From positions 1 through 64,000 of the IMG/VR virus record IMGVR_UViG_3300012147_000001: DNA of 64,000 nucleotides; one strand, written 5' to 3'. This stretch comes from a virus. The position numbers were made by a program, and so were the translations under genes. Numbering within the stretch: the first letter of the stretch is position 1; the number at the start of each line of letters is the position of its first letter. Under the pieces are notes generated by a model, which ran no database searches, was not told where the DNA came from, and saw only the letters and a list, made by a program, of their open reading frames with translations. Positions 142 through 59,051 of this stretch are shown here, one piece after another.

Positions 142-3100
142 ATGGCATTAAGTGATGACAAACTTCAAAAACTTCAAATACAAGGTGGTTTAGCTACTAA
201 CAGAGTTACTGGTACTACTCGTACTCAACGTATAGAAGAAGAAGCTGCTAGAAAAAGACTTAGACTTGGTGACGGTAAAGCTGCCAATGTTGATGACTAC
301 GTAACATTAAATCCTTTTGCATCTCAAGAAGAAATACAAAATTTTGGTTTAGAGCGTAACTACCTAAACCAGAAACAAGAACTTTTAAAAACTTTAGAAG
401 CTAGACGCTTTGAGCAACACAATCCTTATGATTTTAGTGAATTAGCTGGTGATACTGCTAATTCTATAGCTAAAGGTGTTCTTGCAGCAGGTGAAGTAGC
501 ATATGGTGCTGGAAATTTATTATCAAAATACAACGTTCCTGCATTACTTTACAACAATTTAATAGCTGAAGAAGATGACGAACAAATTTCTTTAGATAAT
601 CTTACAGGTGGATTCTCACAAAACTTTGCAGAAAGTAGAAATATTCTTGACGGAATGTTGCAATCTGAAAACCAAACTGCTGATATGGAACGTATTGAAA
701 GATATGGTGCAGAGTTTACCGCTAAATCTGATGAACAAACAAAAGCTGAAATTGAAGCAGGTAATAGTGAGTGGTTTGCTGAAGCAAAAAACATTGGTCG
801 TAAAGCACTTGATACTGCTGAACGTTATTTAAGAAACCCTGCTGTTGTTGCTCAACAAGTAGTAGAAGAAGTTCCTTCATTAATAACAGCTGGTGCTATT
901 GGTAAAGTAGCAGCCACAGGTGTTGGAAAACAAGCTGCCGCAAAACAAGCAACTAAAAGAGAATTAAATGAAGTTACTGACTTATTAAAAAAACAAGATA
1001 ATAAAGCAGTAGTTGATAGATATTTAAAAAGTAAAGCTGGTAAAGAAAAAGTAGGTAGAGCAGCAGAAGCAGCAGGTGTAACACAAGCCGCTGTTGGTGA
1101 AGCTATGAGTAATGCCATACAAACAAAAGGTGAAATTCTTGGTTTAACAGAACAAGCATTAGCTGAAGGTAGTCCAGCATATAATGAAATGAGAGCCAGT
1201 GGTTTAAGTCACGAACAAGCTCGCATGAGATTATCAGAACAAGCATTTGATATTGTTGTTGGTTTAACATTACCACTAGCTGCTGTTTCATCTAAAGTAT
1301 CTGGTGCTGGTAAGTTAGAAGGTACGTTATTTCTTAAAGGTAGTGAGGTATCTAAACCATTTCTTAAAGTAGCAGGTGCTACTGCTATTGAAGGTTTAGA
1401 AGAAGCATTTCAAGGAGGTACAGGACAAGCAGTACAAAACTTTGCTACTCGTGAAACAGCAGACAGTACTCAATCGTTAACCGAAGGAGTAGGTGAAGCT
1501 ATCGGAGAATCAGCAGTAGTAGGTGCTGGTACTGGTGTAGCAATCACAGGAATAACTACTGCACCTGAAATATTTAGTGCTACTGCAAAAGATGTTAAAA
1601 AATTAGCTAATCAAGCAGATAAAGGAATTAAGCTTGCTGCTAATTCAATTGCGAAAGCAACAGACCCTAAAGTAGTTAAAGATGCTATTAAAAGTGGTAA
1701 TGCTAGTGAAATACTAAACACCGAATCTAAAACATATAATCCAGAAGATGCAATTAAAGTTTTACAAAGTCAGCAATTTTTTCCTGTTAAAGAAGAAAAT
1801 GAAAGTGATACTGATTTTGGTACTCGTTCTCAACGTTATATTGAAGAATTAGTAACACACGGTCAAAAATATGCATTAAGAGTAATGGAAAAAAATAAAG
1901 ATTTAGACCCTACTAGCAAGGAAGCTATTAAAAATATGAGCGACCTTAAAAGAACTACACAAATAGTTAATGGATTAAAAGCTCAAGTAGGTATTAAAGA
2001 TTTTCGTGGTGCTATTGCTGCATTAAAAACTGACCCTGAAAACGCTGCTGCTGTAAAAGAAATTTTGCTTGGTTCAATGCAAAGCGTAACTACTAGTCCA
2101 ATATCAGTAGAACAAGCTCAAGAAATTATTGATTCAGGTGAGTTAACTGAAAATGAAATAAAAAAAGCTAAAATATTTATAAAAAGTAAAAACAATCAAA
2201 GTGAAGTCAGTAATGCAATTAAAAACGGTGATAAAGGTAGAATTGGTTTAAATCAACATACTGAGCTAATCACTAGTACTGTAGACCAAGGTGATAAAAA
2301 AACTGCTAGAACTTTGCTTAATAATTTAAGTAAATTTAATAAATCTCAAAATGATAAAGCAATTAAAACTAGACAGGCTTTTGATAAAGTTAGAAACAGT
2401 GATAACCCAAATATAGCAATAAACATTAGTGGTGATACTTGGAAGTTTAATATTACTAAAAAAACTCCAGAAAGTTTTATAAACAATATTGAAACAGATA
2501 ACCAAGCAGTAACTGAGACTTTTAAAAGCTTAAGAGACTATGCTGTTAGTGTATTTATTGAAGGTAAAAATAATAATGTTCGAGCTGAGAATACAGGAAG
2601 CACAGAAAGCACAACTACTGACAGTACAAGAAGCCAATCAACTGATGGAGTTTCTAATAGAAACGAAACAGAGATACAACCAGACAATAGAGTTTCCAGA
2701 GAATCTGGAGTTTTTGTTGAACAAGATGGAACTGGTACTGTTGAACGAACAGCTAATGACAATGCACTAAGCGAAGGTGAACAAGCACAGACGACTGCAA
2801 CGCAGGAGGATAGTGCGGGTGAGCCTGAAGCTAATACACTAACACCTTTTAATAAAATAATGGGTGAAAGTGGTAATAATGATTCTGTAAACCAATTACA
2901 AAATAGTATTCAAGAGTTTGAAACTTTAGATAATTTTGAAAGCGTTGAAACTCTTGAAGAAGAAGAAGCTCTTGAAGCTCAATATATTACTAATATTGAA
3001 AACGTTATTGAAAGTGTTAAAAACGTAAACACAGATAACTACGGTCAACCTATTAAAGATATGCAAGCAGACATTATTAGTCAGCTAGAATTAGGTATGC

Positions 3101-6100
3101 AAGATGTTGCAACAGATGTTGTAGAAGAAGCTGCAAATTTTGTTCGAGAAATTAGAGATATTGATAACAGTAATTTACCATTAACTCAAAAAGGTAATAG
3201 AAATGCTCAAAATCAACAAAGGAATACAGAAACGCAGACGACTCCAGAACAAACAACGTTGCAAGAGGAAAATCAAGAAAATACTAATAGCGAACCAACG
3301 GGAAGAAGAATTAATCCAGACAACTTAAGAACTAATTCAGTAGGTGAAACTATTGAAATTGAAGGAGACCCTGTTAATTCTAGTTATTTAACTAACAAAA
3401 TAATGAACAGTCGTATTGGTAAATGGTTTAGAGCCAAAAAGAAAGTATCTGCCTTTAACAAAGTAGACAACTTTTTTGATAAATACGACACAATAGAAGG
3501 TCTTAATGATGAAGACAGAGTTAATCTTGCACGAGTAAAAGTATTTGTGCAAAAGTTTGCTGACACTGTAGATAGTGTCGTAGGTATGAAACCTGAAGCA
3601 GGTTTACAAACTCACTTGGCTCAATTGTTAATGAACGAAGGTAGTACAACGTATAAAGACGGACTAGACCCTAATGTTATGAATGCTATCGCATTAGGTG
3701 CATTTAATTGGATTGGTTCTCGTGGTAGACAGTCACTTACAAGAACTGAAAATGATATTAGAGAAACAGTTGGTGTAGATGACACAGTAACTATTCCACA
3801 AGATGTTGCTAATTTTTATATAGATAAAGGTATTCCATCGTTTTTAGTAGAAGCTGAAATGGGTAAATACATTGCTGATGTACTTGGATTATCAATTGAC
3901 CCAAATTCAGAAGCTCCTGTAGAAGCCAGAGAGAAGCTAGAATTATCATTAGGTGGAATGGCATACCTAACATTAGAAAAAATGGGTATGATTGAAACCA
4001 GAGATGATAAAGGTAAATATCTATACACTACTGCACCTAAACAAGATGCTATAGATGGTTTTTACCAAGAAAAAACTTCAAAAGGTGCTTTAACAGATTT
4101 TAGACATACTAAACTAGTTGAAAATAATCGAACAGCAAGTCTTGAAAACTTGTTTACTGCATTAGCAGAGCCATTTGAAAAAATGCTTGAAATTGATTAT
4201 CAATTTAAACAACCTTCTTTTGAGCCAAAAACAAAACCTCCTACCATGAATAATAGAGGTAATACTAAACTCAGTAATTCACAAAAAGAAGGTATAGATA
4301 AATACAACAAACGTAAATGGAAAATGAATCCATTGTTTGTTGAGATGGTAGAAATTCTTGGTGATGATGTATTACGTGATGTTATGGGTTATGACTTTTC
4401 ATTAATAAAAAATACAAAAACAGGAAAAGTATCAAGTAACAAAACACATGCTGTAAACCTAGCTGGTGCAGAAGGTAAAAACAACGGTATTGATAGAAGT
4501 TTAAATAATCTTAAAAACTTTGTTAATCACCTTACTGAAAAAGGTTTAGGTTACGTAAATCAAACTTTTCATTTTAATACAGTAGTTGATAGTACGGGTC
4601 GTAACCGTATGGATAACAAACTTATTAATCCACAAACAGATAAGCTTCATCGTAATTCTATGATTATGGAAGGATGGGATTACAGTGTTAATAATATAGA
4701 AAGTAGAAACTTTTTTAAATTAGCAGTAGCTCAAGCATTTGGTGTGTCTATTGATAAATTATCAATGGAAGAGTCTTTAAAACAGGTAAATAATTTATTT
4801 GATTCTAATACTGTTGAAGGTAGATTAGTTCAAAATGCTGTACAAGCTATTAGAAAATTACGCAGTACTGAAGCCAAAACTGAAGATGAAATAGCTAAAT
4901 ATCGTAAAGCAATTCAAACTGTCGTTAATCCTAAAAAATATGGATACCATAGTGCAGACGTAGGTGGAGAAGGAGCACATACTTTAGCTGGTTTAATGGC
5001 TATGGTTGATTATTCAGCAACAAAACCTTTTAATGCTAATTTATCGTTAGAGATTGATGGTTTAACTAATGGAACTGCATTAGCACTTTTAATGTTTGCT
5101 CCAAGTAATCAAGCAGACCAAGATACTTGGTTAGCACGTACTGGTATATTCACCAATGGAATGACTTCTTTTGCTCAATACAAAGAGCAAATACAAGGTG
5201 CTCAAGACAACTACGAAGCATTAGCTAGTAGATTAAGTGATAACTTAACAAAAGGTATTGAAGGACAATTATTTGATAATTTTGGTAAGCAATTACTTAA
5301 TCAAGATTTAATAAAAGTAATAAGACCTATTGGTAACATATTAGCTAAACTAAATAATAAAAATATGGTTAAGTTTGGTTTAGTACGTTCTGTTGCTAAA
5401 AACCCAGTAATGATAGGTAATTACGGAGCAGGTGTTACTAAAGTAGTGCAAGAATTTAGTCAGGAAGTTATTAACAATTTTTACGACACAATAGAAACTG
5501 CTGTTGCTGATAATGATTTTGCAAAGTTAGTACAACTTAATGATGAATTAAGTAGAGTAGTTTTGGGTGATAACTACAAAGGAAATGGTGTTGGTTTAAT
5601 TTACATTGATGGTAATGGAAATCCTCGTGGTAAAAATTGGAAACAAGCTGCATTAAATTTTACATTAAATTCTGAAGACAGTAATAAATTTAGACTACAA
5701 GTGACAAGCACTTTTGGTGCAATTATGCGTTTGTCTATGGAACAAGAATTTGGTGAAATAAGAGAAGAACGTAGTAAGTTTAATACTTTAATAAATGCAC
5801 ATAATGCTTTATTTAGAGCTGCTTACGACACTGAAGTTGAAAAAGCGATAGCTGAAAATTCTGAAAGTATTTTAACGTTTAAAAAGAAACAAGAAATACT
5901 TAAAAAAATTGCTAAATTTAAACCTGAAATTAAACATGTTCAATCAGAAGATATGTTTGACCAAATGCCAGTAACAACTGAAATTAGAGTTGATAGTAGA
6001 AATGCTGCTCAAGCAGTAGAAGTTCCAAAAGTTAGCGATAGTTTGCCTAATTCTCCTATTGGAAATAACTTAAGAACTTATGCACAAACACAAACTTTTA

Positions 6101-9100
6101 CAAGCAATGGAGCTAAAGGAACTGTTTACGCAGTGCAGTCAACTGAGTCTGGAATAGTAATTGAAGTACTTAAACAAGATGCACCAGTTTTACAAGTTTA
6201 TGATGGTTTATTGGTTAATCCAAATAACGCAATTGAAGTAGCTCAAATAGCTAACAAAGCAACAATAGATTTAAGTAAAAAAGGTAACTTATATAAAGAT
6301 TTAGCTAACAGTGTGCAACGTGCTATTAGAGGTTTACCTAATGAATATTTAGAACTAGCTAATATTTATCTTAAAGATGAAATTAATCATGATTCTAAAA
6401 AAGAAACTCCAATGGATGTTGTTAAAAATGCTTTAATTAATACTGTAGCTATACAACAATCTAGAGCAGATTTATACGGAAGAATAAAAGCTGTTAATCA
6501 ATATGCATTTCCTAGTGGTGAACATAGTTTATTAAATGAAACTGAAGAAACTAATCAAAGTTTAGTAAATGATTTTGTTTTAAATATTAAAAACAAAAAT
6601 GGTGTATTAAATTCATCACCAGAAGGTGAAACACCTAATGGCATTGAAAAATTAAATACTAAACTAAATCTTAATAATATTGTTGGTTTACTTAATAGTG
6701 CAAGAAGCTCTAGTACTACTAAATCAAGTAATGGTCATTTTGCTTATTTGCAGGAGCTTCTAGGAGACACATACAACGGTTTTATTACTGAGCTTAAGCT
6801 TAAGGTATCTGAATCAAATGCACCTAACAGCGGTGTATACGATTTCACTGCTAAAGAAATTAGAACCAACGTAAACACTGGTCATAAACAAAGCCCTACT
6901 GAAATGGGTCAAGATGAAATCTTAGCTCACGAAGTTGTACATAGTATTACTAAAAATGCTTTAGAAACTAATAATATATTAGCAAACGAAATACGTAAGC
7001 TAATGAAACAAGCTAAAGCTAAAATTACCCCAAAAGATTTTGAAGTAAATGGTTTAAGTTCAGAAGAAGCTTTAATAGCTTATAACTACATATTTGAAAA
7101 CCCGAATAAAACTATTAAAGGTTACTCTGTTGGTGTACACGAGTTTGTTGCTTATGGTTTAACAAATGAACACTTTATGAATTTGTTAAGAGATAAAGTA
7201 GATACTAATTACAATCCTAATGGAGTAGAGAGTACTGTTGTTGGTAAGCTAAGAGCATTTTATAGCAAAATGGTTAATATGTTTTCTGACAAATTACGTA
7301 AAACAAATAATTTAACAGCAGATAAAAAATTACTAGAACTTACTAGACAGTTAATGCAAAACGAATTAAATGCTAAACAAAGAATAGTAAATACCAGTTT
7401 AGTAGAGAAATTTGAAGAAGGCACTAAAACAGCATTATTGTCTTATATTCAGCGTCCAATATTAGCATTACTTAATGCTGACGTATTAACTAGAAATACT
7501 GATAATAAGTTATTAACTGTGGCTCAAGGTCTTGCAGCAATAGGTCGTATAACTGCTACAGGTCAAGTTGGGGAATTTAGAAAACAAATAAACAAAGTAA
7601 TGAATAGACTTGGTGCGACTGAAAATAATTTATTAATTGCTTTAATGAATGAAATTCAAGGTAGAACTGACGAAAATAATCGTTTTTACGAGCTTGCAAG
7701 AGAAGCACGTAAGCTTATTGACCAAGCAAGAGCAGATACTAGCGTTAATATAAAACGACACGTTAGAAAGCAATTTGGAAAAGAATTAACCAGCGATGAA
7801 GAAAAATCTTTAACAAGAGTATTACTTAAAACTGATTTGTCATCTCTTACTCAAAAGTATGGTGCTGAGGATATTCATAAATTAATTACAGACACTGATT
7901 TTTTAACAAGAGAAATTAAAAAAACGCATCAAGAATTAAGACAGTTTGGTAATAATACAAGATGGTACATTAGACAAGCTCAGTCACTTGGTCATTTTAT
8001 GGTTAATAATCAATTTACTGAAAGTTTTGGTTTAATGAATGCACATGCTATATCAAGAAAAGTTGGTCTTAATAGTTCAGTACCCACTAATGCAAGCCAA
8101 GCAGAACCAATAATAGATAGATTAGCTACTTTAACTGCATTACGTGTTACTGCTAAAGAATATCCAGCAGACATGAAAAGAGCAGTTACTGTGTTTGAAG
8201 AAGAATTTACACGTAGTAGTGACCCAGAAGAAAATGGAATCATATTTACTTTAATGAATCATGTTGATTATAAAAAACGAGCATCAGAACAATTATTTAA
8301 TAATAATCCAATGCTTGTTGAAAAAGGTTACATAAGAGAGATTTATAATCCTAATAAAAGTTTTAAAGTAGCTCCAACAGCAGACATCGAATTAATGGGT
8401 AAAGATGGTTTTACTGCTGTAGGTACAGTAGGTAAAGATGCATCTGACCCTAATACAACTTCAATGACTATGTATGTGACTGATATGGGTGCATTAGCTC
8501 CTTGGCAAGCTGGAGGTGTTTCTATCGCAGGTATGACTAATAAAGGTACTAAGTATTTTAATACTGTGGCTCAAACTACAATACCTAATTCACATAAAAC
8601 AGCAGTAAATGCTACAAATACTATGAAACAAAATAAATTAAAAGATGCTCAAAATATTTATAATGGAACAGCAAAAACACAAGCTAAAAATTCATTAGTA
8701 CCTTTGCTTGATGACCAAGGTAACGTAAGTGATTATAGATATGTGATGCAAGAAAAAACTAAAGATTTGTTAGATGTTAATATTCAATTAAGTGATGTAT
8801 TAGGTGCTATGGAAGGAAATATGAAATCTAAAGTGGCTGGTACTGAAATTAACAGTAAGTATGTGGAAGCTCTTGTAGAAGACTATAACACCAACTTTAA
8901 AACAGACCCTGAAAGATATGTGTTTGTTGGATTAAATTCTGACAGAGCAGACTTGGAAGAACTGTATAAAATGATGCCATCAGATATGAGAGCACAAATT
9001 AAAGCAGCAACAGGACAAGATGGTATTTTTGTAAAACAAGATATTGTTAAGTTAGTTTTTGGACAACGTAAGTTTAGTATTCCTCATTATTTTAGAGAAA

Positions 9101-10095
9101 AACAACGTTTAAATGATTTAAATGGTAAGTTAGGTAATATGTATTTATCAAAAGTATATAGAACTCTTGGCTCACCTAAAGCAGCTCATATAGAACAAAG
9201 CTGGCAAGAAGTTATTTCATTTGTAAAAGACACTATTGTTGTAAAAAGCATAGTAACTTTATTAGCAAACATTGCTAGTAACAATGTGTTGTTATGGTCT
9301 ATGGGTGTTGGATTTAAAGACATTCTTGTTCAACAAGAAAGAGCTGTTAAATTTGCTGAAAAGTATCAAGAAGATAAAGAAAAAATTGATGAAATTAGTA
9401 GAAACATTGTTGTAAATCAAAACAAAAAAGGTAATAGAACAGCTTTAATAGCAAAGCTTCAAGCAGAAAAAACTAAATTAGAAGATGAATTAATAACTAA
9501 TCCTGTACATGATTTAATTGAAGCAGGTGTTTATCAATCTATTATTGAAGATATAGATATGCTTGATGATGAATTTTCTTACTCAACTAAACTAGAAGAT
9601 TGGTTAGAGCCTGTAACAAGTAAAATACCTAAACAACTTAAAACTGTTGGTAATACTGTATTAATAAATCAAGGTACTCCTCTTTATGAGTTACTAAGAC
9701 GTAGTACACAGTTATCTGATTTTGCAGCTAGGTTTGCATTACATGAACACAACAAAAATAAAGGAATGGATGCTAAAGATTCAATTAACATGGTAGTAGA
9801 TACTTTTATTGATTACGATTTACCAACACATAAAGGTATTGAATATTTAAATAGTATGGGTGGTATTTTCTTTACTAAATTCTTTTTAAGAATACAAAAA
9901 GTAATATTAAATACTTTAGTAAACTCACCAGCAAGGTTTATTGGATTATATGAATTACAAGATTTGTTTGGTGGTTTATCTGACATTACTGATTCTTTTA
10001 TACTTACTAAAGACATTGGTTTTATGTTTAAAGACCCGATTGAAGCTTTAAGTGGATATTTTGATACACACCCATTAATACAATTACTTAAATAA
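142..10095 (+). CDS. Virion-encapsidated RNA polymerase (N4 gp50-like vRNAP)
   Basis: 3317 aa with T7-superfamily motifs DSTGR, EIDGLTNG (A), RSVAKNPVMIGNYG (B) and QVYDG (C). Zincin-like AHEVVH in the C-terminal part. No Cys noticed, as in N4 vRNAP. Confidence 0.96.
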   Translation: MALSDDKLQKLQIQGGLATNRVTGTTRTQRIEEEAARKRLRLGDGKAANVDDYVTLNPFASQEEIQNFGLERNYLNQKQELLKTLEARRFEQHNPYDFSELAGDTANSIAKGVLAAGEVAYGAGNLLSKYNVPALLYNNLIAEEDDEQISLDNLTGGFSQNFAESRNILDGMLQSENQTADMERIERYGAEFTAKSDEQTKAEIEAGNSEWFAEAKNIGRKALDTAERYLRNPAVVAQQVVEEVPSLITAGAIGKVAATGVGKQAAAKQATKRELNEVTDLLKKQDNKAVVDRYLKSKAGKEKVGRAAEAAGVTQAAVGEAMSNAIQTKGEILGLTEQALAEGSPAYNEMRASGLSHEQARMRLSEQAFDIVVGLTLPLAAVSSKVSGAGKLEGTLFLKGSEVSKPFLKVAGATAIEGLEEAFQGGTGQAVQNFATRETADSTQSLTEGVGEAIGESAVVGAGTGVAITGITTAPEIFSATAKDVKKLANQADKGIKLAANSIAKATDPKVVKDAIKSGNASEILNTESKTYNPEDAIKVLQSQQFFPVKEENESDTDFGTRSQRYIEELVTHGQKYALRVMEKNKDLDPTSKEAIKNMSDLKRTTQIVNGLKAQVGIKDFRGAIAALKTDPENAAAVKEILLGSMQSVTTSPISVEQAQEIIDSGELTENEIKKAKIFIKSKNNQSEVSNAIKNGDKGRIGLNQHTELITSTVDQGDKKTARTLLNNLSKFNKSQNDKAIKTRQAFDKVRNSDNPNIAINISGDTWKFNITKKTPESFINNIETDNQAVTETFKSLRDYAVSVFIEGKNNNVRAENTGSTESTTTDSTRSQSTDGVSNRNETEIQPDNRVSRESGVFVEQDGTGTVERTANDNALSEGEQAQTTATQEDSAGEPEANTLTPFNKIMGESGNNDSVNQLQNSIQEFETLDNFESVETLEEEEALEAQYITNIENVIESVKNVNTDNYGQPIKDMQADIISQLELGMQDVATDVVEEAANFVREIRDIDNSNLPLTQKGNRNAQNQQRNTETQTTPEQTTLQEENQENTNSEPTGRRINPDNLRTNSVGETIEIEGDPVNSSYLTNKIMNSRIGKWFRAKKKVSAFNKVDNFFDKYDTIEGLNDEDRVNLARVKVFVQKFADTVDSVVGMKPEAGLQTHLAQLLMNEGSTTYKDGLDPNVMNAIALGAFNWIGSRGRQSLTRTENDIRETVGVDDTVTIPQDVANFYIDKGIPSFLVEAEMGKYIADVLGLSIDPNSEAPVEAREKLELSLGGMAYLTLEKMGMIETRDDKGKYLYTTAPKQDAIDGFYQEKTSKGALTDFRHTKLVENNRTASLENLFTALAEPFEKMLEIDYQFKQPSFEPKTKPPTMNNRGNTKLSNSQKEGIDKYNKRKWKMNPLFVEMVEILGDDVLRDVMGYDFSLIKNTKTGKVSSNKTHAVNLAGAEGKNNGIDRSLNNLKNFVNHLTEKGLGYVNQTFHFNTVVDSTGRNRMDNKLINPQTDKLHRNSMIMEGWDYSVNNIESRNFFKLAVAQAFGVSIDKLSMEESLKQVNNLFDSNTVEGRLVQNAVQAIRKLRSTEAKTEDEIAKYRKAIQTVVNPKKYGYHSADVGGEGAHTLAGLMAMVDYSATKPFNANLSLEIDGLTNGTALALLMFAPSNQADQDTWLARTGIFTNGMTSFAQYKEQIQGAQDNYEALASRLSDNLTKGIEGQLFDNFGKQLLNQDLIKVIRPIGNILAKLNNKNMVKFGLVRSVAKNPVMIGNYGAGVTKVVQEFSQEVINNFYDTIETAVADNDFAKLVQLNDELSRVVLGDNYKGNGVGLIYIDGNGNPRGKNWKQAALNFTLNSEDSNKFRLQVTSTFGAIMRLSMEQEFGEIREERSKFNTLINAHNALFRAAYDTEVEKAIAENSESILTFKKKQEILKKIAKFKPEIKHVQSEDMFDQMPVTTEIRVDSRNAAQAVEVPKVSDSLPNSPIGNNLRTYAQTQTFTSNGAKGTVYAVQSTESGIVIEVLKQDAPVLQVYDGLLVNPNNAIEVAQIANKATIDLSKKGNLYKDLANSVQRAIRGLPNEYLELANIYLKDEINHDSKKETPMDVVKNALINTVAIQQSRADLYGRIKAVNQYAFPSGEHSLLNETEETNQSLVNDFVLNIKNKNGVLNSSPEGETPNGIEKLNTKLNLNNIVGLLNSARSSSTTKSSNGHFAYLQELLGDTYNGFITELKLKVSESNAPNSGVYDFTAKEIRTNVNTGHKQSPTEMGQDEILAHEVVHSITKNALETNNILANEIRKLMKQAKAKITPKDFEVNGLSSEEALIAYNYIFENPNKTIKGYSVGVHEFVAYGLTNEHFMNLLRDKVDTNYNPNGVESTVVGKLRAFYSKMVNMFSDKLRKTNNLTADKKLLELTRQLMQNELNAKQRIVNTSLVEKFEEGTKTALLSYIQRPILALLNADVLTRNTDNKLLTVAQGLAAIGRITATGQVGEFRKQINKVMNRLGATENNLLIALMNEIQGRTDENNRFYELAREARKLIDQARADTSVNIKRHVRKQFGKELTSDEEKSLTRVLLKTDLSSLTQKYGAEDIHKLITDTDFLTREIKKTHQELRQFGNNTRWYIRQAQSLGHFMVNNQFTESFGLMNAHAISRKVGLNSSVPTNASQAEPIIDRLATLTALRVTAKEYPADMKRAVTVFEEEFTRSSDPEENGIIFTLMNHVDYKKRASEQLFNNNPMLVEKGYIREIYNPNKSFKVAPTADIELMGKDGFTAVGTVGKDASDPNTTSMTMYVTDMGALAPWQAGGVSIAGMTNKGTKYFNTVAQTTIPNSHKTAVNATNTMKQNKLKDAQNIYNGTAKTQAKNSLVPLLDDQGNVSDYRYVMQEKTKDLLDVNIQLSDVLGAMEGNMKSKVAGTEINSKYVEALVEDYNTNFKTDPERYVFVGLNSDRADLEELYKMMPSDMRAQIKAATGQDGIFVKQDIVKLVFGQRKFSIPHYFREKQRLNDLNGKLGNMYLSKVYRTLGSPKAAHIEQSWQEVISFVKDTIVVKSIVTLLANIASNNVLLWSMGVGFKDILVQQERAVKFAEKYQEDKEKIDEISRNIVVNQNKKGNRTALIAKLQAEKTKLEDELITNPVHDLIEAGVYQSIIEDIDMLDDEFSYSTKLEDWLEPVTSKIPKQLKTVGNTVLINQGTPLYELLRRSTQLSDFAARFALHEHNKNKGMDAKDSINMVVDTFIDYDLPTHKGIEYLNSMGGIFFTKFFLRIQKVILNTLVNSPARFIGLYELQDLFGGLSDITDSFILTKDIGFMFKDPIEALSGYFDTHPLIQLLK
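2576..2770 (+). CDS. Putative nested gene (64 aa, helical) in the +1 frame inside vRNAP
   Basis: GAAGGT at 2560-2565 then ATG 2576; MFELRIQEAQKAQLLTVQEANQLMEFL...MTMH*; overlaps a low-complexity vRNAP linker with atypical codons. Confidence 0.5.
   Translation: MFELRIQEAQKAQLLTVQEANQLMEFLIETKQRYNQTIEFPENLEFLLNKMELVLLNEQLMTMH
3203..3328 (+). CDS. Putative nested basic peptide (41 aa) in the +1 frame inside vRNAP
   Basis: AAGGT at 3191-3195, ATG 3203; MLKINKGIQKRRRLQNKQRCKRKIKKILIANQREEELIQTT* (14 K/R). Confidence 0.4.
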   Translation: MLKINKGIQKRRRLQNKQRCKRKIKKILIANQREEELIQTT

Positions 10096-10136
10096 AAAAA
10101 CACCCCCAAGCCGAAGCAAGGGGGTGTATATTTTTA
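10094..10136. terminator. Bidirectional intrinsic terminator between the convergent late and middle blocks
   Basis: A-tract, then CACCCCC-AA-GC-CGAA-GC-AA-GGGGGTG, then T-rich; TTCG loop on the minus strand. Confidence 0.8.
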
Positions 10137-10137
10137 G

Positions 10138-10371
10138 TTAAAGTTTTTGGTTTAGTTTTTCAGCTTCTTGAAGCTTTTCACGTAACCGCCAGACGTATTG
10201 CATAGCATCACCAAGTTCATCAATAAGATGACTACACCATTCAACAGAATTAAGGTCTTCTCTGTCCATTGTGACACCATATTTATTAAATCCAAGGTGA
10301 CTGCGACTATCAAAGTAATTTTTGATTTCGCTAGTTACCCGAACTTCTGGACATGTATTATTTTGGTTCAC
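10138..10371 (-). CDS. Conserved small phage protein, possibly all-alpha NTP pyrophosphohydrolase-like
   Basis: Motif R..LG..KYG.T..R.DL...W..H..DE..D...Y. Confidence 0.45.
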   Translation of the reverse strand: MNQNNTCPEVRVTSEIKNYFDSRSHLGFNKYGVTMDREDLNSVEWCSHLIDELGDAMQYVWRLREKLQEAEKLNQKL

Positions 10372-48965: not shown

Positions 48966-51900
48966 ATGAAAAAAAACTTTTATACAATTGAAAAATTCAA
49001 ACAAACTTTTGATTCTGAAGGTAAAGAAATATTAACTAAAATAAATGCAAACAGTACAGAAGAAAATATTGAAGTAAATAATGAAATTAATGAATTTATT
49101 ATGCACCATTTTTATTCATCTTATTCAGTACTAGAACTTATTTCAAATACTGATATTCTTAAAGGAAGAATTGCAGTAACTGCTTTTAAATTAGGTGCTC
49201 AAGGACATAGAAGAAACAGAACTCTTAGTATGTGGAATTATAATCCAACAAGTAATTTTGACACTGCCCAATCTATGGTAGTTGGTGGATTAATTAATAA
49301 TAGTGAAAATGCAGAAGAATCTGGAACAGATGTAGTAGTACAAACTTTTAAAAACGTATTTTCACCTCCAATCAGTGAAGCTAGAACAATTAATAGTTTA
49401 ATTCTTTCTAAATTTATTTTTACTAATAGCTCAGATAATACTGTTTTTAGTACAGCTATTTTAGATACACCTTGTATTCAAGAAACAGATGAAGTTCTAA
49501 TAATAACGTATCGTTATGTTTATGATAAATTGGCTATGGCTCAAACTAATCAATGGTATGACAAAAACCCAGATTATTGTTTAAAAATGGCTGATGATAT
49601 TGGAAGACTTTTATTAATTCCAGACGGAAATAAACATTGTGTATATGGAAAAGTTAGTTCAGTAATTTTTAATAGTATTAGTGCTGTTAAAGAAAATAAT
49701 CATATTTTAGCTACTACATCTTTAGCTAATACTTCTTACGATATTCTAACAGACACAAAATTAAATTATAGAGGAGAGTTTTGCGAAGTTATTAGTTTTA
49801 ATATTGCAATTAATAGTTTTGTTGGAAAAGTATTACATTCAAGTATATTAAATTCAATTGTAAATTTTGATAGAAGTATAAACACATTTAGTTTTGATAG
49901 TTTTCATTTTCCAACATCTGAAATGTTATTTAGAAGACCTTTAGATACTGTTGTTCAAAACAGTTTTAATAAATCTTTAAACTTAACTGATGATTTTTCT
50001 GCATCAGTAACTCCCTTTTTTGATGTAAACAACCAAGCTAGTTCTATTGGATTAATTCAATTGTCAGAAGACTTTACCAGTGGTGATACAAGTTACATTA
50101 AAAAACCTGCATTAGCTGAATTAATTAGAGTGCATGTAACTTCTGCGGGTTCAGCATCAACTGCTGAATATCGAGTATCAAAAAGATTAACAGCAGGTTA
50201 TCAAAGGTCTTCAAATTGGGATGGAGACAAAAGTAGTATAGTTTTAACAGGAAATTATAATGCTGATTTTGGTATGAGTGAAGGAGTTACTCACTTAGAT
50301 TTTAGTAATAAAACAGATGGTTTTATTCACACATTGTCTCAAATGAGATTGGGATTAATTTTTGGTTTAAGTATTGGAGAAACTATGACTTTTTTAAGGT
50401 CACTATCTCTAAGACATGATGGAATACATATTCACTCACTTAATATGAAAGATAACAGATTTCCTATTAAAATAGACTCAACAACTTTACCTACTTTTTT
50501 AGCAACTGATTTAAGAGGTGTTTGTGCAGCAGAAGATGGAACTATATTTGCTGCATGTAATAACACTGGTTTATGGAAATTAACTAGAAATCTTGGAGAC
50601 ATGGCTGCTGATATGATAGCTACCCGCATAACTAATACAGGAGCTACTGACGATACTTCGTGTCGTGCAGTTAACTTTGGTCGTTATGGAAATAGATTTA
50701 ATTCTGATGCTCGTATGGTAGCGTTATTTGGAAATGAGTTATGTGTTTCTGAGAATGGTGGAAGTAGTTGGACAATGTATAACGCTAGTTCAACACCAGC
50801 TTTTAATCCTTCATTTGGTATATATAATGAAATAACAGGAATTGTTATTCATCCACAACAACTTGAAGTAATTATAACAGGAAGACAAAGCACCACTTTA
50901 AATGTATTAAATGTTCGTGTAGTTACTACAAGTATAAGTTTAAATACGCCACATAGAAATTTTTTATGGAACGGTACAACAGGAACAATTACAACTAAAA
51001 ATGAAACATTTTTAAGTGACCCAATTGCTGAAATGTATGGTAGTGGGAATAATATATTTATCCCATTAAGTAATGGAACAAATGAAAAATGGTGTGAACG
51101 TTTAATACAAGGTACTAACGAACAGTTAAAAGTATTTAATAATTTTAGTTCTTTTATTAATCTTGATGGTTCTGGTTTTAAGAAAACATGTGTTGCTTTT
51201 GTTTATGACGAAATAGCAGATGAATCAATGATGTTTTATGGTGATTCGGATAATTTTATTTATGATTTAAGTTTTAATTCTGTTAATTATTGGAAAACAA
51301 ATACAACAAGTGCTAATACCCGTTTTATGAGTTTTTCTCCTAATGATAATGCTGCAATATGTTTTATATATAGGGGAATATTAATAGCTTCAGGGTCAAT
51401 GAATAGTGTTAGAGGTACAAATTTAGGTGATAACACTACAACCAATGACGAAATATTAGAATCATATATGTGTTTAATTACCGCATCTTTTGGTAACAAT
51501 GATTATTATAAAAATAACAGATTAAATTATTGGTATAATTATGGTTGGGATGGTAATAATTGGGTATTAGATGATATTACCAGTAAAACTGCTTCATCAA
51601 ATACAACAGAACTTATAGAAGGTTTAAGTATTACATTTGAAGATGACAGTGCCGCAGCAGGTAGTGTATTAAATTTTGTAGAAAATGATGCGTCAGATAC
51701 TCATGTATTTGATGGAATTGTAAAAGACGATTTTACTAACTTTAATTATTCACAAATAGCTTTTCATGCTCCTACTGTTGTAGGAAACACTTTTACGCCT
51801 TCAATTATTCCTGCAAATGGCGCAGGTAACAGAAAAGTACCAATATCAATTAATTTTTCTAAGTTAAATAGTAGAGGTGTAGTAAACACTGAAGACCAAT

Positions 51901-52847
51901 ATACTACATTTAGTTATGATTATATTTTTTCTGGTTTAAATGGATTTAGAAGGTCTTTTGCTCCTGTGGGTACTGGCTTTTCAAGAATAGGTGAAATATT
52001 ACCTAAAAATGTAGATTTTTTGTATGAATTTAAATTAGGGATAGTGTTAAACGAAGGGCCGAATTTTAATAATACAAATTTTACAGATGAAGAAACTATA
52101 CCTATGTTATGTTTAACACAAAAAGGTAATACAACAGATTCAATAATTTACGCATCAGAATCAGACGTAGGTTTACCTTTTTTTGGTATACGCCCTAATT
52201 TTAAATTTGATGACCCAGATGCTATTTTAATTCATGTTTATTACAATGGTTTAACTTCAGTAAGTCAAATGGAAACAATTGTAATAGAAAATTATAACCC
52301 TAAAAATGATGTTTTTGGTTTTAGAAATTCTGGAGGTATATTTACTTTTGAAAGAAATGGTGTAGTTATAGATACTCCGAACAATCGTATTGCTAATAAT
52401 GTTACATCTTTAACAAATTTAAACGTTTCTTTAATTCATTATGCAACAGGATTTATTAGCGGGTTTTTAGGTAATTATGCTGGGAATAATATAGGTAATT
52501 CAATAGAATTAAGAGATATGTTTATTACTTATAATGACCAAAAATTAATAAGCAAAATAGGTACACCGTTTCAAGCAGAAAATGGGGGTAATCCTGAAAT
52601 ACCTGCTACGGGTAGTTTTGCTAGTGATTTTGGTAAAGTTTTAGGTATTGAATATACCCTTAACGCATCTAAAATAATGATAGATGGTGTAGAAGCTGTT
52701 ATTATTAAAGACTACCTAACAACAGTACCATTACAAGGTCAAATATTACTTTGTGAAGGTACTGGTGAAATAACGTTTAGTCCCGATGATGCGGGTAAAA
52801 CAATTACAGGTGATTGGCGTTATATCCCTAGATTAAACCAAAGATAA
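48966..52847 (+). CDS. Large tail / receptor-binding protein (probable beta-propeller)
   Basis: About 1293 aa, beta-rich, with Asp-box-like VSENGGSSWT. Confidence 0.65.
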   Translation: MKKNFYTIEKFKQTFDSEGKEILTKINANSTEENIEVNNEINEFIMHHFYSSYSVLELISNTDILKGRIAVTAFKLGAQGHRRNRTLSMWNYNPTSNFDTAQSMVVGGLINNSENAEESGTDVVVQTFKNVFSPPISEARTINSLILSKFIFTNSSDNTVFSTAILDTPCIQETDEVLIITYRYVYDKLAMAQTNQWYDKNPDYCLKMADDIGRLLLIPDGNKHCVYGKVSSVIFNSISAVKENNHILATTSLANTSYDILTDTKLNYRGEFCEVISFNIAINSFVGKVLHSSILNSIVNFDRSINTFSFDSFHFPTSEMLFRRPLDTVVQNSFNKSLNLTDDFSASVTPFFDVNNQASSIGLIQLSEDFTSGDTSYIKKPALAELIRVHVTSAGSASTAEYRVSKRLTAGYQRSSNWDGDKSSIVLTGNYNADFGMSEGVTHLDFSNKTDGFIHTLSQMRLGLIFGLSIGETMTFLRSLSLRHDGIHIHSLNMKDNRFPIKIDSTTLPTFLATDLRGVCAAEDGTIFAACNNTGLWKLTRNLGDMAADMIATRITNTGATDDTSCRAVNFGRYGNRFNSDARMVALFGNELCVSENGGSSWTMYNASSTPAFNPSFGIYNEITGIVIHPQQLEVIITGRQSTTLNVLNVRVVTTSISLNTPHRNFLWNGTTGTITTKNETFLSDPIAEMYGSGNNIFIPLSNGTNEKWCERLIQGTNEQLKVFNNFSSFINLDGSGFKKTCVAFVYDEIADESMMFYGDSDNFIYDLSFNSVNYWKTNTTSANTRFMSFSPNDNAAICFIYRGILIASGSMNSVRGTNLGDNTTTNDEILESYMCLITASFGNNDYYKNNRLNYWYNYGWDGNNWVLDDITSKTASSNTTELIEGLSITFEDDSAAAGSVLNFVENDASDTHVFDGIVKDDFTNFNYSQIAFHAPTVVGNTFTPSIIPANGAGNRKVPISINFSKLNSRGVVNTEDQYTTFSYDYIFSGLNGFRRSFAPVGTGFSRIGEILPKNVDFLYEFKLGIVLNEGPNFNNTNFTDEETIPMLCLTQKGNTTDSIIYASESDVGLPFFGIRPNFKFDDPDAILIHVYYNGLTSVSQMETIVIENYNPKNDVFGFRNSGGIFTFERNGVVIDTPNNRIANNVTSLTNLNVSLIHYATGFISGFLGNYAGNNIGNSIELRDMFITYNDQKLISKIGTPFQAENGGNPEIPATGSFASDFGKVLGIEYTLNASKIMIDGVEAVIIKDYLTTVPLQGQILLCEGTGEITFSPDDAGKTITGDWRYIPRLNQR

Positions 52848-52858
52848 GGTAAATTAAT

Positions 52859-53515
52859 ATGTCACTTAACTTAGCTCCTTGGGTAAAAGAATCCTGTTCT
52901 ACTATTGGAACAGGGAGTTTATTACTTACAGGTAATACAACATCGTTTATTTCTTTTGCTACGGCAATGAGTAATGGTGATAAAGTTTACTATTCTATAT
53001 TAGATACTAATGGAAATAGAGAAGCAGGTATTGGAACTTTTGATGGTGTTAATACCATTACCAGAACTACAGTAACTGCTACTCTAGTTTTAGGCAGCTA
53101 CGATGAAACTAATCCTACTCCTTTACCTTTAAGTGGTAACTCAGTTGTAATATGTTCATTAAACGCAACTGCTTTTGAACAAGTATTTAATAATCTAAAT
53201 TTTGATTATGGTGGTATAAGTTCAGGTGAGGTTGTTGCTTCTGGTTTTTATATTTCAGAAACTGAAGCACAATTTTATTTACCATTTACTCATGTTACTC
53301 GACCTGTAAGTATTACAACAAATGTAGCCAATGGATTTGATATATTTACATTTACTGGTTCAGATGAAGCTAATGTTACTCCTGTTTTTAATGGAGTTTT
53401 ATCATCTAATAAAATAGCAGTACTAGACATTGCTGGACTTACAGGTAAAACAGTAGGTGCATCTATAAGTTTAAGAACTAACAACGCAAATTCAAAAATT
53501 ACTGTAAACTTTTAA
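52859..53515 (+). CDS. Putative fibre/appendage protein
   Basis: N-terminal VKE..ST.GTG.L.L.G....F..F...GD.VYY.I motif typical of phage fibre proteins. Confidence 0.55.
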   Translation: MSLNLAPWVKESCSTIGTGSLLLTGNTTSFISFATAMSNGDKVYYSILDTNGNREAGIGTFDGVNTITRTTVTATLVLGSYDETNPTPLPLSGNSVVICSLNATAFEQVFNNLNFDYGGISSGEVVASGFYISETEAQFYLPFTHVTRPVSITTNVANGFDIFTFTGSDEANVTPVFNGVLSSNKIAVLDIAGLTGKTVGASISLRTNNANSKITVNF

Positions 53516-55908: not shown

Positions 55909-57693
55909 ATGGCATTTTCATTAAGCGGTTCAACAATTACACAGACAGGAACAGACACCTCTCTCGATGGTATTGAATTATTATCGGGCGTTACTCGCAT
56001 AACAGCTAGTGGTCTTAGTTTTTACATTTTAAATACTCGAACTATTCGTGTAGAAGGAACTTTAAGTATTGACCCTGAAATAGAGTCAATGATATTTATA
56101 AATTACGGAAATGGTATTACATTTGATGTAAGAAGTGGAGGTGTTTGTAATTTTGGACGAGAAATAGATATTGGTGCATCAGTAAACCGATTTAGTTCAG
56201 GCACTATAGCGTTGTTTACAAGAAACAGCGATAGCGAATTTGATGAAAATCGTTCAGACCTTTACGTTAGAGGTGGTGGTACGCTAAATTGGTATGGTGG
56301 TACTGTAATATCTAAACGTATTTTTGCAATTTACGGAACACTTAATACTTTTTCTCAAAACTGTGAATACATAAATCAACATACAGGAGAAACACAAATA
56401 CGACAACGTTCAAACACTACTAACGTACAAGGTCTAGTTACTAGGGGATGTTTTTTAACACTTATTAATAACCCTGTCGCTTGGAATGGGTGGAAACCGT
56501 TTGATACTCTTAACCAAGCAATATCATCTTCAAATTCTACACCAGATAGGGTTTGGTTAACACTAGCAGGGTTTGACCCATCAGGTGTAGCAGGACAACA
56601 AATTGCTTTTTGGTCTGACGTGTGGATTAGATTAATAAATAACGCAATAGGTATGTCATTAGTTGCAGGTGGTAATAATGACGGTGGTGCAAATAGTGGT
56701 ATTTATGAAATACGTCAAAAAGTAGCTATAACTACTAAAAATCTTGCAGGTGAAAACTTAAATGCTAAGTATTTTACCAAAGATTTTGATAATGGTAATC
56801 GTGTAGACACCCAAATAAATAACAACCCAACTACAATTCCAGATAGAATTTACTCTGGTATAACAACTGACGGTGTAGCTACAATAGATGATGACGGTGG
56901 AGTTTTAATTGGTGTTATATGGCGCGATATTGGCGGTGGTAGTAGATTTCAAAATGTCGAATACGATTATCGCTGTAGAGCAAATAATGATAGTGACGTA
57001 TTCACCTTTTTATTTTGTGAATATAATTATTTATTACAGCAAGCTGATTATGTAATGAAGAGCACTACACCTATTAACGTAAATAGAGTGTTTTTTATAG
57101 ACAGGTCACTAACAGAAATATCAAAAACAATTGTAGATGTTTACTCTACTATTGATAATGCTAACCAGTTCTATGATAGAGCCAAGTCATTCCTGTTCGA
57201 TAACTTTGCAGGTGAGAGCGAAACAATAGTCAATCGGTCAGGAACATTGATTGATGCTGGTAGTAACAACATTATCATTGATGCCACAACAGGTTCAGCG
57301 TTTGCTTACGATGGTTCAACTATCACAATCAAAGCATCAAACTTTGTGGGTGACTTGCTAACTACAGGCTTAATTACGTTTAGTAATGGCTCAACAATAA
57401 GTGGCACATACACAGATACTAACGGCACAGTAGCGCCTAGCGCACAGCTAACCGTAGCAGTGAATCAAATTGGTTGTGATGTTGTAATACTAGAGTCAGG
57501 AACAGATACAGTGTTAGCAAGTGTAGATGCTCAAGCAGGTAACAGTTTTGTGTGGAATTATTCAGGAGCACAGCTCATAGATGTTGGAATAATTAAACAA
57601 GGATTTGTAGTAAATTATACTTACGGTTTTCAGTTAACTGGTGCAAGTACTACGTTGCCAGTTACATTAATAGTTGATAGAAATTATTCATAA
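55909..57693 (+). CDS. Putative fibre/spike protein
   Basis: 594 aa, G/T/N-rich beta-helix-like; ends in DRNY. Confidence 0.55.
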   Translation: MAFSLSGSTITQTGTDTSLDGIELLSGVTRITASGLSFYILNTRTIRVEGTLSIDPEIESMIFINYGNGITFDVRSGGVCNFGREIDIGASVNRFSSGTIALFTRNSDSEFDENRSDLYVRGGGTLNWYGGTVISKRIFAIYGTLNTFSQNCEYINQHTGETQIRQRSNTTNVQGLVTRGCFLTLINNPVAWNGWKPFDTLNQAISSSNSTPDRVWLTLAGFDPSGVAGQQIAFWSDVWIRLINNAIGMSLVAGGNNDGGANSGIYEIRQKVAITTKNLAGENLNAKYFTKDFDNGNRVDTQINNNPTTIPDRIYSGITTDGVATIDDDGGVLIGVIWRDIGGGSRFQNVEYDYRCRANNDSDVFTFLFCEYNYLLQQADYVMKSTTPINVNRVFFIDRSLTEISKTIVDVYSTIDNANQFYDRAKSFLFDNFAGESETIVNRSGTLIDAGSNNIIIDATTGSAFAYDGSTITIKASNFVGDLLTTGLITFSNGSTISGTYTDTNGTVAPSAQLTVAVNQIGCDVVILESGTDTVLASVDAQAGNSFVWNYSGAQLIDVGIIKQGFVVNYTYGFQLTGASTTLPVTLIVDRNYS

Positions 57694-57704: not shown

Positions 57705-59051
57705 ATGGCTAAAATAACTAGTAGAGCAGGTCTTAACGTAGGTACTGAAATTATAATTAATGAAGCTAATAAAACTTTTTCATTAGTTGAAGCAGGTAAT
57801 CTCAATGCTAAAGATGGTGTAACAATTCAAGCAATTTACAGTAAGTTTGTTGACCTTTGGGCTACAGCAACATACCAAGATTCACCTTTTCCAATGAACG
57901 CACTAGATGCATTATCTGGTCAGTATTTAATAGGTATTGATGCAGGTGGTAATGCAAACGGCTGGAGACCACTTAACGATACTACTCGTCAAATAATGCG
58001 AGATGGTGGTTGGGAAGAGTACGATGAAAATGGAGTACTATTAAGAGTTTATGCTGGTTTAGTTGGATTAGGAAGTGTTAGTGCTGGTGCTCAATTGTAT
58101 TACCAAACAGAGCCAACTAGTGCTCCTGTTAATTTTACTTTTGAAGACCAAGCAAACGAAGGTATACAAGTATTTGGTAACGCTGCTAACGGAAATTTTG
58201 ATAATCGCACATTCTTTAAAACATTTGTTCGAGAGCAAGGTAAAAGTTTTAGTGATTCTGTATTAGCAGACACAGGTAAAACAACTACTGGCGCATTTAT
58301 AGTTAACATGCTTTTAAGTAATTCAGATGATTTAAAAATATCTGATTTAGATAGTGAAATGACTAACGCACCTTATAATAATATTACTGTTGAATATTTT
58401 GCTAGTAATCAGTCTCGTACAATTGGTGGAGTAGCTTACAACTTTGATGTAATTATTGATGGTAATAATGCAACTCTTGAAGAGATTTACACAAAAACAC
58501 AGTTTTTGTTGCGTCAAAGTACTGATATTGATTCTGGTGCTGGTACTGTTATTGGTCAAACAGCAGATTTACTTTGTCAATTTGTAGGAGAGACATTACA
58601 AACTACTAGTGGAGTGTTTATAGATAATATTCAATCTGCTGATAGTAACCGTATTATATTTAATGATGTTACTGGTACTGATAGAATAAATCCTTTTGAA
58701 TCGTCAGGAGTGTTAAACTTTAACGCTATACTTGTTGGTGCTGGTTCTAGTTATAGATTAATGTACACTGCACCCGCAGGTACAGGAAACGATTACGGAG
58801 AAGCTGGAGCTATTACCGTTAATGATGCTAGTGGTAGTCCTATTACTGGAATTATTTCTTCTGGTTCAATTGGATTTACATTTGATTTTGATGGAGATGC
58901 TGTTGGTGGAACTGCTGGCACTGATAAAGTAGTAACATTGATTGGTATTCGTCCTAACAGTTCTAAATTTGCAGTTGCTGAAGGTTTGTTAAATCGTTCT
59001 AAAGGTATAACTTTATCTTTAGTTGCAGAAGCAGATAGAGCTTATTTGTAA
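57705..59051 (+). CDS. Putative virion structural protein
   Basis: 448 aa; GVT.QA.YSKF..LW, FPM and RDGGW.E motifs; ends in DRAY. Confidence 0.6.
   Translation: MAKITSRAGLNVGTEIIINEANKTFSLVEAGNLNAKDGVTIQAIYSKFVDLWATATYQDSPFPMNALDALSGQYLIGIDAGGNANGWRPLNDTTRQIMRDGGWEEYDENGVLLRVYAGLVGLGSVSAGAQLYYQTEPTSAPVNFTFEDQANEGIQVFGNAANGNFDNRTFFKTFVREQGKSFSDSVLADTGKTTTGAFIVNMLLSNSDDLKISDLDSEMTNAPYNNITVEYFASNQSRTIGGVAYNFDVIIDGNNATLEEIYTKTQFLLRQSTDIDSGAGTVIGQTADLLCQFVGETLQTTSGVFIDNIQSADSNRIIFNDVTGTDRINPFESSGVLNFNAILVGAGSSYRLMYTAPAGTGNDYGEAGAITVNDASGSPITGIISSGSIGFTFDFDGDAVGGTAGTDKVVTLIGIRPNSSKFAVAEGLLNRSKGITLSLVAEADRAYL

Follow-up and report, generated by a model that had tools for sequence, protein, structure and literature searches.

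The virion RNA polymerase gene of an N4-like lake phage probably carries an overprinted gene in its +1 frame

To our knowledge, genes embedded fully within another gene on the same strand are textbook material for the spanins of tailed phages and are otherwise rarely documented in these phages; gene callers are designed to disallow them. The spanin Rz1, a lipoprotein of the outer membrane, carries a signal sequence and a cysteine in a lipobox. Two sources place the lambda Rz1 gene within Rz, in the +1 frame, with both frames functional (PMC6139136, PMC5295617), and the first of them describes a single complex formed by the Rz and Rz1 products. Here we describe a putative gene of comparable layout, located at positions 2576-2770 in the +1 frame of the gene for a virion RNA polymerase (vRNAP) of the phage N4 type. 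The window analyzed covers positions 1-64,000 of a 72,003-bp IMG/VR virus record (IMGVR_UViG_3300012147_000001) that carries direct terminal repeats and is rated complete; the phage is uncultivated and its DNA occurs in lake-water metagenome runs. In N4, the vRNAP transcript is late and the region before the polymerase core forms a separate N-terminal domain. Overprinted genes of other viruses include B, K and E of phiX174 and L of MS2, of which E and L encode membrane-active lysis proteins. The concept of de novo genes arising by overprinting is set out in PMC8227390 and PMC3494269, and PMC4496689 gives the size of the N4 vRNAP as 3500 amino acids (aa).

The first-pass annotation of the window had proposed that a GAAGGT motif and ATG 2576 open a 64-aa open reading frame (ORF) in the +1 frame of vRNAP, and the sequence and its translation gave exactly these coordinates and this peptide. 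The ORF lies wholly inside another coding gene, on the same strand and in a different frame, and has a start of its own preceded by a motif that resembles a ribosome-binding site. It is very probably a genuine, selected coding gene overprinted on a flexible linker of vRNAP (residues ~812-877), a judgement that covers the reality of the gene and its selection and leaves its function aside. The core of the annotation, a real small gene in the vRNAP +1 frame, is thus upheld by the presence of the same ORF in a related contig, by tests of selection and by codon usage in both phages.

The locus resembles Rz/Rz1 in that a small gene with its own start would be contained entirely in a larger tailed-phage gene, read from the same strand in the +1 frame. 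It differs in that its product is acidic, soluble-looking and free of cysteine, has no similarity to PHROG or Pfam entries, and has a vRNAP gene and not a lysis gene as its host. With overprinted virus genes it shares a new frame laid over an older gene, a poorly constrained overlapped part and the status of an orphan of a narrow clade. However, the genomes of phiX174 and MS2 measure a few kilobases and are under strong size pressure, whereas the present one is that of a 72-kb dsDNA podophage. The host gene product is, like N4 gp50, giant (3317 aa), and matches annotated vRNAPs of the Schitoviridae: by tblastn, the vRNAP segment matched annotated virion RNA polymerase genes in 91 phage records, the best match being the RNA polymerase of Alteromonas phage vB_AemP_PT15-A5 (Schitoviridae, 30%). 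The Pfam family vRNAP_dom_2 was found at residues 1381-1506 (E 3e-5, 24.7 bits, under the 27-bit cut-off), the precomputed Pfam entries on the protein are PF21894, PF21624 and PF21867, and the window has an N4-like gene content (primase, DNA polymerase, rIIA, Dda-like helicase, large terminase and portal). As judged from these matches, the host gene is an N4-like vRNAP, a giant single polypeptide encoded in an N4-like genome, and the nested ORF falls in the part of it that precedes the polymerase core. For other N4-like vRNAPs, we found no report of a nested gene in the papers retrieved; where the phrase "overlapping gene" occurred together with vRNAP, it meant the host genes nfrA/nfrB or the filtering of phiKZ Tn-seq data. 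Same-strand embedded phage genes are a known kind; this member, its host gene and its protein family are new.

Relatives are very few and comprise a full-length vRNAP protein (P0003, 45-46% identical overall), an IMG/VR contig (L002) that carries vRNAP from position 7482 to the contig end (38-41% identical), and a metagenome contig (L004) that is 99.84% identical to L002, with none of the 16 mismatches inside the ORF. At the homologous position of its vRNAP, L002 carries a 65-codon +1 ORF (9964-10161). The two +1 products aligned by BLASTP over 65 positions without gaps (33/65 identities, 51%; 45/65 positives; E 1e-17), and across this block the polymerase frame is 33% identical. Both products start with MF and end with MH followed by the stop, L002 having two ATGs in a row. 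The +1 similarity runs from the ATG to the stop; downstream, both +1 frames hit stops, and upstream of the ATG the +1 translations are unrelated (ETMLLVYLLKVKII compared with LSLIIQEHKLM in L002), L002 being without an equivalent of the ATG at 2540. The check named in the first-pass annotation, conservation of the ribosome-binding site, the ATG and the open +1 frame, comes out positive in L002, the sole DNA relative, in which Shine-Dalgarno (SD)-like site, ATG, frame and stop are all kept. In the three-way vRNAP alignment the block forms 65 columns without a gap, with 7 and 5 gap positions just upstream and 100, 0 and 78 in the three rows over the next 100 columns; it is an indel-free island within a hypervariable linker. 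After the nested stop (vRNAP residues 877-960), indels are very large, with ~117 extra residues in P0003 and ~39 in L002, and a short motif, EQ..TTATQEE.AGE.E.N, is common to the three vRNAPs beyond them.

To determine which frame is under selection, the codon register was taken from the frame-0 protein alignment of this phage with L002, so that the +1 frame had no part in setting it. Of 641 ungapped 64-codon windows, the target had the highest +1 identity (0.52) and also the largest excess of +1 over frame-0 identity, the frame-0 identity being 0.33. Identity at frame-0 codon positions 1, 2 and 3 was 0.48, 0.57 and 0.72 in the block and 0.56, 0.65 and 0.48 elsewhere in the gene; because the usual order is position 2, then 1, then 3, the periodicity is displaced by one base. 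Across the block, identities were 22/66 in frame +0, 34/65 in frame +1 and 19/65 in frame +2. Different codons were used at 22 of the 34 conserved +1 positions (TAA versus TAG included) and at 4 of the 22 conserved frame-0 residues, and 44/66 frame-0 residues differed. Synonymous resampling of vRNAP (20000 draws) gave 14.1 +/- 2.9 identical +1 residues, with a maximum of 26, versus 33 observed, and left the +1 frames open in both phages in 0.4% of the resamplings. As synonymous sites may be incompletely randomised, the same statistic was calibrated on 46 tiled vRNAP windows, which gave a mean z of 1.05 (standard deviation 1.26), compared with 6.3 for the target and 3.3 for the next window. This next-best window, at ~5641-5835, is the sole other one with a raised +1 identity to L002 (25/64), with frame 0 also at 25/64, and lies outside the six longest +1 open runs of vRNAP (the shortest of the six having 42 codons).

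An OLGenie-style count of differences agreed with these tests. Sites nonsynonymous in both frames (NN) differed at 0.354, sites nonsynonymous for vRNAP and synonymous for the small ORF (NS) at 0.747, and sites synonymous for vRNAP and nonsynonymous for the small ORF (SN) at 0.270. For the small ORF, pNN/pNS was 0.47 (bootstrap 95% interval 0.31-0.73; below 1 in 99.9% of replicates), and because the distances are uncorrected the +1 constraint is understated; for vRNAP, pNN/pSN was 1.31 (0.88-2.16), so that frame 0 shows no amino-acid constraint across the block. In the reciprocal test, the frame-0 identity expected from the +1 peptides was 17.7 +/- 2.6 and the observed value 21 (p 0.14), and frame 0 was open by chance in 0/20000 resamplings for this phage and in 0.03% for L002. 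Combined, these results show that the +1 amino-acid sequence is under purifying selection separable from the host frame, and that the polymerase frame across the block is selected only to stay free of stops. The substitution pattern is the one that had been predicted for selection on the +1 frame, including a depressed variation at vRNAP third positions (identity 0.72 in the target versus 0.51 on average).

Codon usage points in the same direction. The first-pass annotation had listed CGA, GAG, AGC and TCC as vRNAP codons uncommon elsewhere in the gene, and each is enriched in the span (CGA 2/6 versus 5/129 in the rest of vRNAP, GAG 2/7 versus 30/247, AGC 3/8 versus 19/193, TCC 1/8 versus 0/193). 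When the vRNAP gene is divided into 50 non-overlapping 65-codon windows, synonymous-codon preference is lowest in the span; in L002 the equivalent span is likewise the lowest, of 39 windows, so that this stretch is the most atypical in both phages.

The +1 frame also contains an ATG at 2540, missed at first, from which a product of 76 aa would start; as the resulting 12-residue extension is not conserved in L002, 2576 was taken as the start. SD-like motifs are found 5-18 nt before the first ATG in 32/51 long ORFs of the phage, versus 6% in random 14-mers, and AAGG is the commonest of them (14/51 long ORFs). The arrangement GAAGGTAAAAATAATA-ATG of the nested ORF is similar to the start sites of the genes at 52859 and 59060, and L002 has AGGAG at 9950-9954, 9 nt before ATG 9964. 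On the evidence of sequence, an SD-like motif of the kind used by the phage thus precedes the ATG in both phages. Four sigma-70 promoter-like sites were found between 2000 and 3100 (3.5 expected), none positioned to drive the nested ORF, and the start regions folded no better than shuffles (z -0.5); given an unstructured start and no separate promoter-like site, we infer internal initiation on the vRNAP mRNA. Provided that the gene is real, its expression would probably proceed without frameshift, ribosomes starting independently at the internal AAGG(T)/ATG site of the vRNAP mRNA, and the small protein would then be made together with vRNAP late in infection; its product is likely to be an acidic, probably three-helix protein of no known family.

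The predicted product has a mass of 7.8 kDa, an isoelectric point of 4.6 (4.1 in L002) and a net charge of -5 (-10 in L002). It is rich in Leu, Glu, Gln and Met and has neither Cys nor Trp, and the grand average of hydropathicity of the two homologues is -0.26 and -0.24. AlphaFold2, run with a two-sequence alignment, predicted helices at residues 3-12, 18-34 and 43-63 with a mean predicted local distance difference test (pLDDT) score of 74. The helical hydrophobic moments of the three predicted helices range from 0.11 to 0.59, so that the initial description of the ORF as amphipathic holds in part. Read one base later, the Ser/Thr/Asn/Asp/Gly linker yields Leu, Gln, Glu, Met and Lys codons, which fits the origin of a helical protein de novo by overprinting.

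Searches with the small protein returned nothing below E 0.01 in Pfam and PHROGs, no usable match in the ESM Atlas and no paralogue in its own 72-kb genome. With the AlphaFold2 model, the best Foldseek match in the PDB had E 7.8; the best E of the BFVD fold search was 1.1, and a wide VIA-align search gave a best Z of 5.7, within the range common for helical bundles. Among 1.84 billion predicted proteins searched with a profile, no such protein was present, so gene callers did not call the gene, as had been anticipated for standard annotation; the only match (P0007, 155 aa, E 1e-5) was judged spurious and fell threefold on a KADLLTHQEA repeat. Two kinds of known protein were considered and rejected. 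An Rz1-like o-spanin does not agree with the lack of Cys in either homologue, the lack of a signal sequence, the charge of -5 to -10, the charged N-terminus MFELRIQEAQK and vRNAP as host gene. A membrane lysis protein of the phiX174 E or MS2 L type does not agree with charges throughout and no uncharged membrane-spanning stretch, the most hydrophobic helix (residues 42-62) having four acidic residues and one Lys.

For the lineage represented by P0003, the frame-0 peptide was examined for the +1 residues that it allows. It could encode 40/65 of the +1 residues of this phage, 40/65 of those of L002 and 28/34 of the conserved ones, with a stop possible at the same place. Controls gave 12.4 +/- 3.1 (maximum 23) for 3115 other P0003 segments and 15.2 +/- 3.1 (maximum 27) for 5000 shuffles of the segment, and true homologues score 37-38 on this measure. 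The P0003 lineage is thus compatible with the same ORF, short of proof.

Further relatives were sought at several levels. Positions 1800-3600 had no blastn match in 50,697 phage records, and tblastn of the small protein against the same records, with E values up to 10 allowed, gave no match; cultured Schitoviridae therefore lack the ORF. In peptide-pattern scans of viral contigs, made with the segment of this phage, with P0003, with L002 and with vRNAP and small-protein alignments, L002 was the sole DNA relative. A metagenome scan matched L004 alone, genome contig scans returned no relative, a degenerate DNA pattern modelled on the conserved 3' part hit the L002 contig only, and none of 1238 candidates was a shorter vRNAP fragment spanning residues 690-900. 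The gene appears to be restricted to a freshwater (lake) clade that has been little sampled. Of four sequencing runs compared, X2 covers the nested ORF without differences and X3-X5 do not span it, which leaves no population variation for analysis.

Several points weigh against a real and selected gene. Two independent DNA lineages are available for comparison, L004 being a twin of L002, and the gene is known from DNA contigs alone. The SD-like site is weak, with only a 4-nt AAGG core and an 11-nt spacer. The fold prediction rests on two sequences, a second predictor gave a pLDDT <50 for the peptide in at least one run, and as no relatives of the protein were found, no function can be transferred to it. 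At the conserved Met, P0003 has Asp-Ile (Asn/Asp-Val in the others), which allows only ATA or ACA, so that translation in this lineage would have to begin elsewhere; four codons upstream, an Asn-Glu pair could provide an ATG. Lastly, in 2000 shuffles of the whole vRNAP gene that preserved the protein and the overall codon usage, +1 open runs of at least 78 codons arose in 20%.

The impossibility of an ATG at the conserved Met of P0003 would also suit the main rival explanation, a programmed +1 frameshift before 2576 that yields a truncated N-terminal domain of ~811 residues with a conserved 64-residue tail and no free protein. A frameshift would equally lead one to expect selection on the +1 frame, the frame-0 sequence GGT AAA AAT would allow a +1 slip of lysyl-tRNA, and an SD-like element lies upstream. 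We nevertheless consider it quite unlikely. The ATG stands exactly at the onset of similarity in both DNA lineages, the distance from SD-like motif to ATG (9-11 nt) is that of initiation, and the +1 translation before the ATG is not conserved. Moreover, the AAA-A site is absent from L002, and the two phages have no further slippery motif in common over the 36-45 nt that separate the +1 stop from the ATG (2534-2575 compared with L002 9934-9963, a weak test with two DNA sequences).

It is very unlikely that the frame is open by chance, in a GC-richer Ser/Thr/Asn/Asp/Gly linker devoid of stops in its other frames, and yields no functional protein. The length of the ORF is within chance and is not evidence by itself, as shown by the equally long runs in the shuffles, in 8% of which an ATG-started +1 ORF of at least 76 codons was present. 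The local GC content at the nested ORF (0.41) is the peak of the vRNAP gene, and high GC by itself leaves fewer stop codons. Other open runs without signs of selection exist. A second 78-codon +1 run of vRNAP, at 596-832, has no ATG near its start (GTG 608, ATG 704) and is matched by ~75 open codons in L002 (7960-8190), with ordinary +1 conservation; taken as a negative control, it shows that being open in both phages is insufficient as proof. The antisense frame is also open across the nested gene in both phages (2538-2909, minus strand, and L002 9923-10189, minus strand), with a 123-codon run and ORFs of 74 and 88 aa. Of all six frames, this one shows the lowest conservation (18/65), and for this reason it is regarded as a by-product of the two sense frames. 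In the sequence L005 of Alteromonas phage vB_AemP_PT15-A5, which includes the first 2515 codons of the vRNAP gene, the longest +1 run of this part (46 codons, offset 2785-2923) likewise sits in an acidic repeat linker before the polymerase core; it is hydrophobic, basic and unrelated in sequence, and such vRNAP linkers may generally be permissive for alternative frames. What chance does not explain is the shared start and stop, the 51% identity in +1 versus 33% in frame 0, the 22 codon changes that are synonymous in +1, the pNN/pNS of 0.47, the shifted periodicity and the indel-free block, nor that the control run 596-832 reaches z 1.6-2.0 versus 6.3 for the target.

A conserved nucleic-acid element (RNA structure, packaging or regulatory site) with the open frame as a by-product is hardly credible: a terminator-like hairpin at 2694-2710 within the ORF and the unusual conservation of frame-0 third positions speak for it, but the block identity (115/198, 58%) does not stand out against the average of the gene (~56%), so that neither recent transfer nor a conserved DNA or RNA element is an explanation, the conservation has a three-base period in the +1 register with start and stop kept, the amino-acid replacements are conservative ones (45/65 positives), the hairpin is not kept in L002, and the start region folds like its shuffles. 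The hairpin (2694-2720, plus strand), in the middle of both vRNAP and the nested ORF, has a 7-bp stem with 3 GC pairs followed by a T-run.

With regard to the function of the overprinted gene, it is possible, though doubtful, that the small protein acts on or with vRNAP, as a chaperone, a silencer, a co-packaged factor or a keeper of its inactive, packaging-competent state. This link to vRNAP is a guess from co-expression and from the precedent of Rz/Rz1, where the embedded products form one complex. Co-folding of the small protein with vRNAP residues 1-811 returned a score of 0.00, which is no answer and counts neither way. In a more specific and unlikely version, the protein would be a dedicated vRNAP partner made from the same mRNA, packaged and delivered at the start of infection, its acidic helical body serving as cofactor or as a counter-defence mimic of nucleic acid, and the linker would be kept largely as carrier of the gene. 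Such a packaged partner is hinted at by nothing beyond late co-expression, the acidity and the Rz/Rz1 precedent.

If the product works with vRNAP, it would add a player to the least understood steps of N4-type infection, namely the silencing, packaging and ejection of a polymerase of 3300 residues. The locus is a clear case, recognised from sequence: the amino-acid constraint lies on the embedded frame, and the giant host gene does no more than stay open across it. It shows that new genes can arise and persist in the disordered linkers of very large phage proteins. Protein catalogues of billions of sequences overlook such genes, and comparison of two genomes with frame-resolved substitution counts suffices to expose them. 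In practice, the finding is limited by a phage that has been seen in lake metagenomes only and by sparse sampling of its clade. The coordinates of the features are collected in Table 1.

Table 1. Positions of the nested gene, its surroundings and other features
Feature	Position	Strand	Description
Nested gene	2576..2770	+	vRNAP +1 frame, 64 codons plus TAA (2768-2770); wholly inside 142-10095; probable gene
SD-like GAAGGT	2560..2565	+	AAGG core 2561-2564; 10 nt from GAAGGT to ATG 2576
Upstream open +1 part	2540..2575	+	Alternative ATG 2540, MLLVYLLKVKII, not conserved
Upstream +1 stop TAA	2531..2533	+	Closes the +1 frame before the nested ORF; open from 2534
Linker, vRNAP codons 812-877	2575..2772	+	Frame 0, Ser/Thr/Asn/Asp/Gly/Glu-rich, runs across the nested gene
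Host gene vRNAP	142..10095	+	First gene of the stretch, 3317 codons, frame 0, N4-like virion RNA polymerase
Upstream +1 stop in L002	9931-9933	+	From the L002 sequence
ORF without PHROG match	48966-52847	+	1293 aa
ORF without PHROG match	55909-57693	+	594 aa
ORF without PHROG match	57705-59051	+	448 aa
ORF without PHROG match	59060-60964	+	634 aa

The last four entries of Table 1 are large ORFs that adjoin the portal gene and have no PHROG match at E 1e-5. At the start of vRNAP itself, none of the SD-like motifs scored (AAGG, AGGA, GGAG, GAGG) is found 5-18 nt upstream (120-141), and weak initiation of vRNAP would give ribosomes more room for an internal start.

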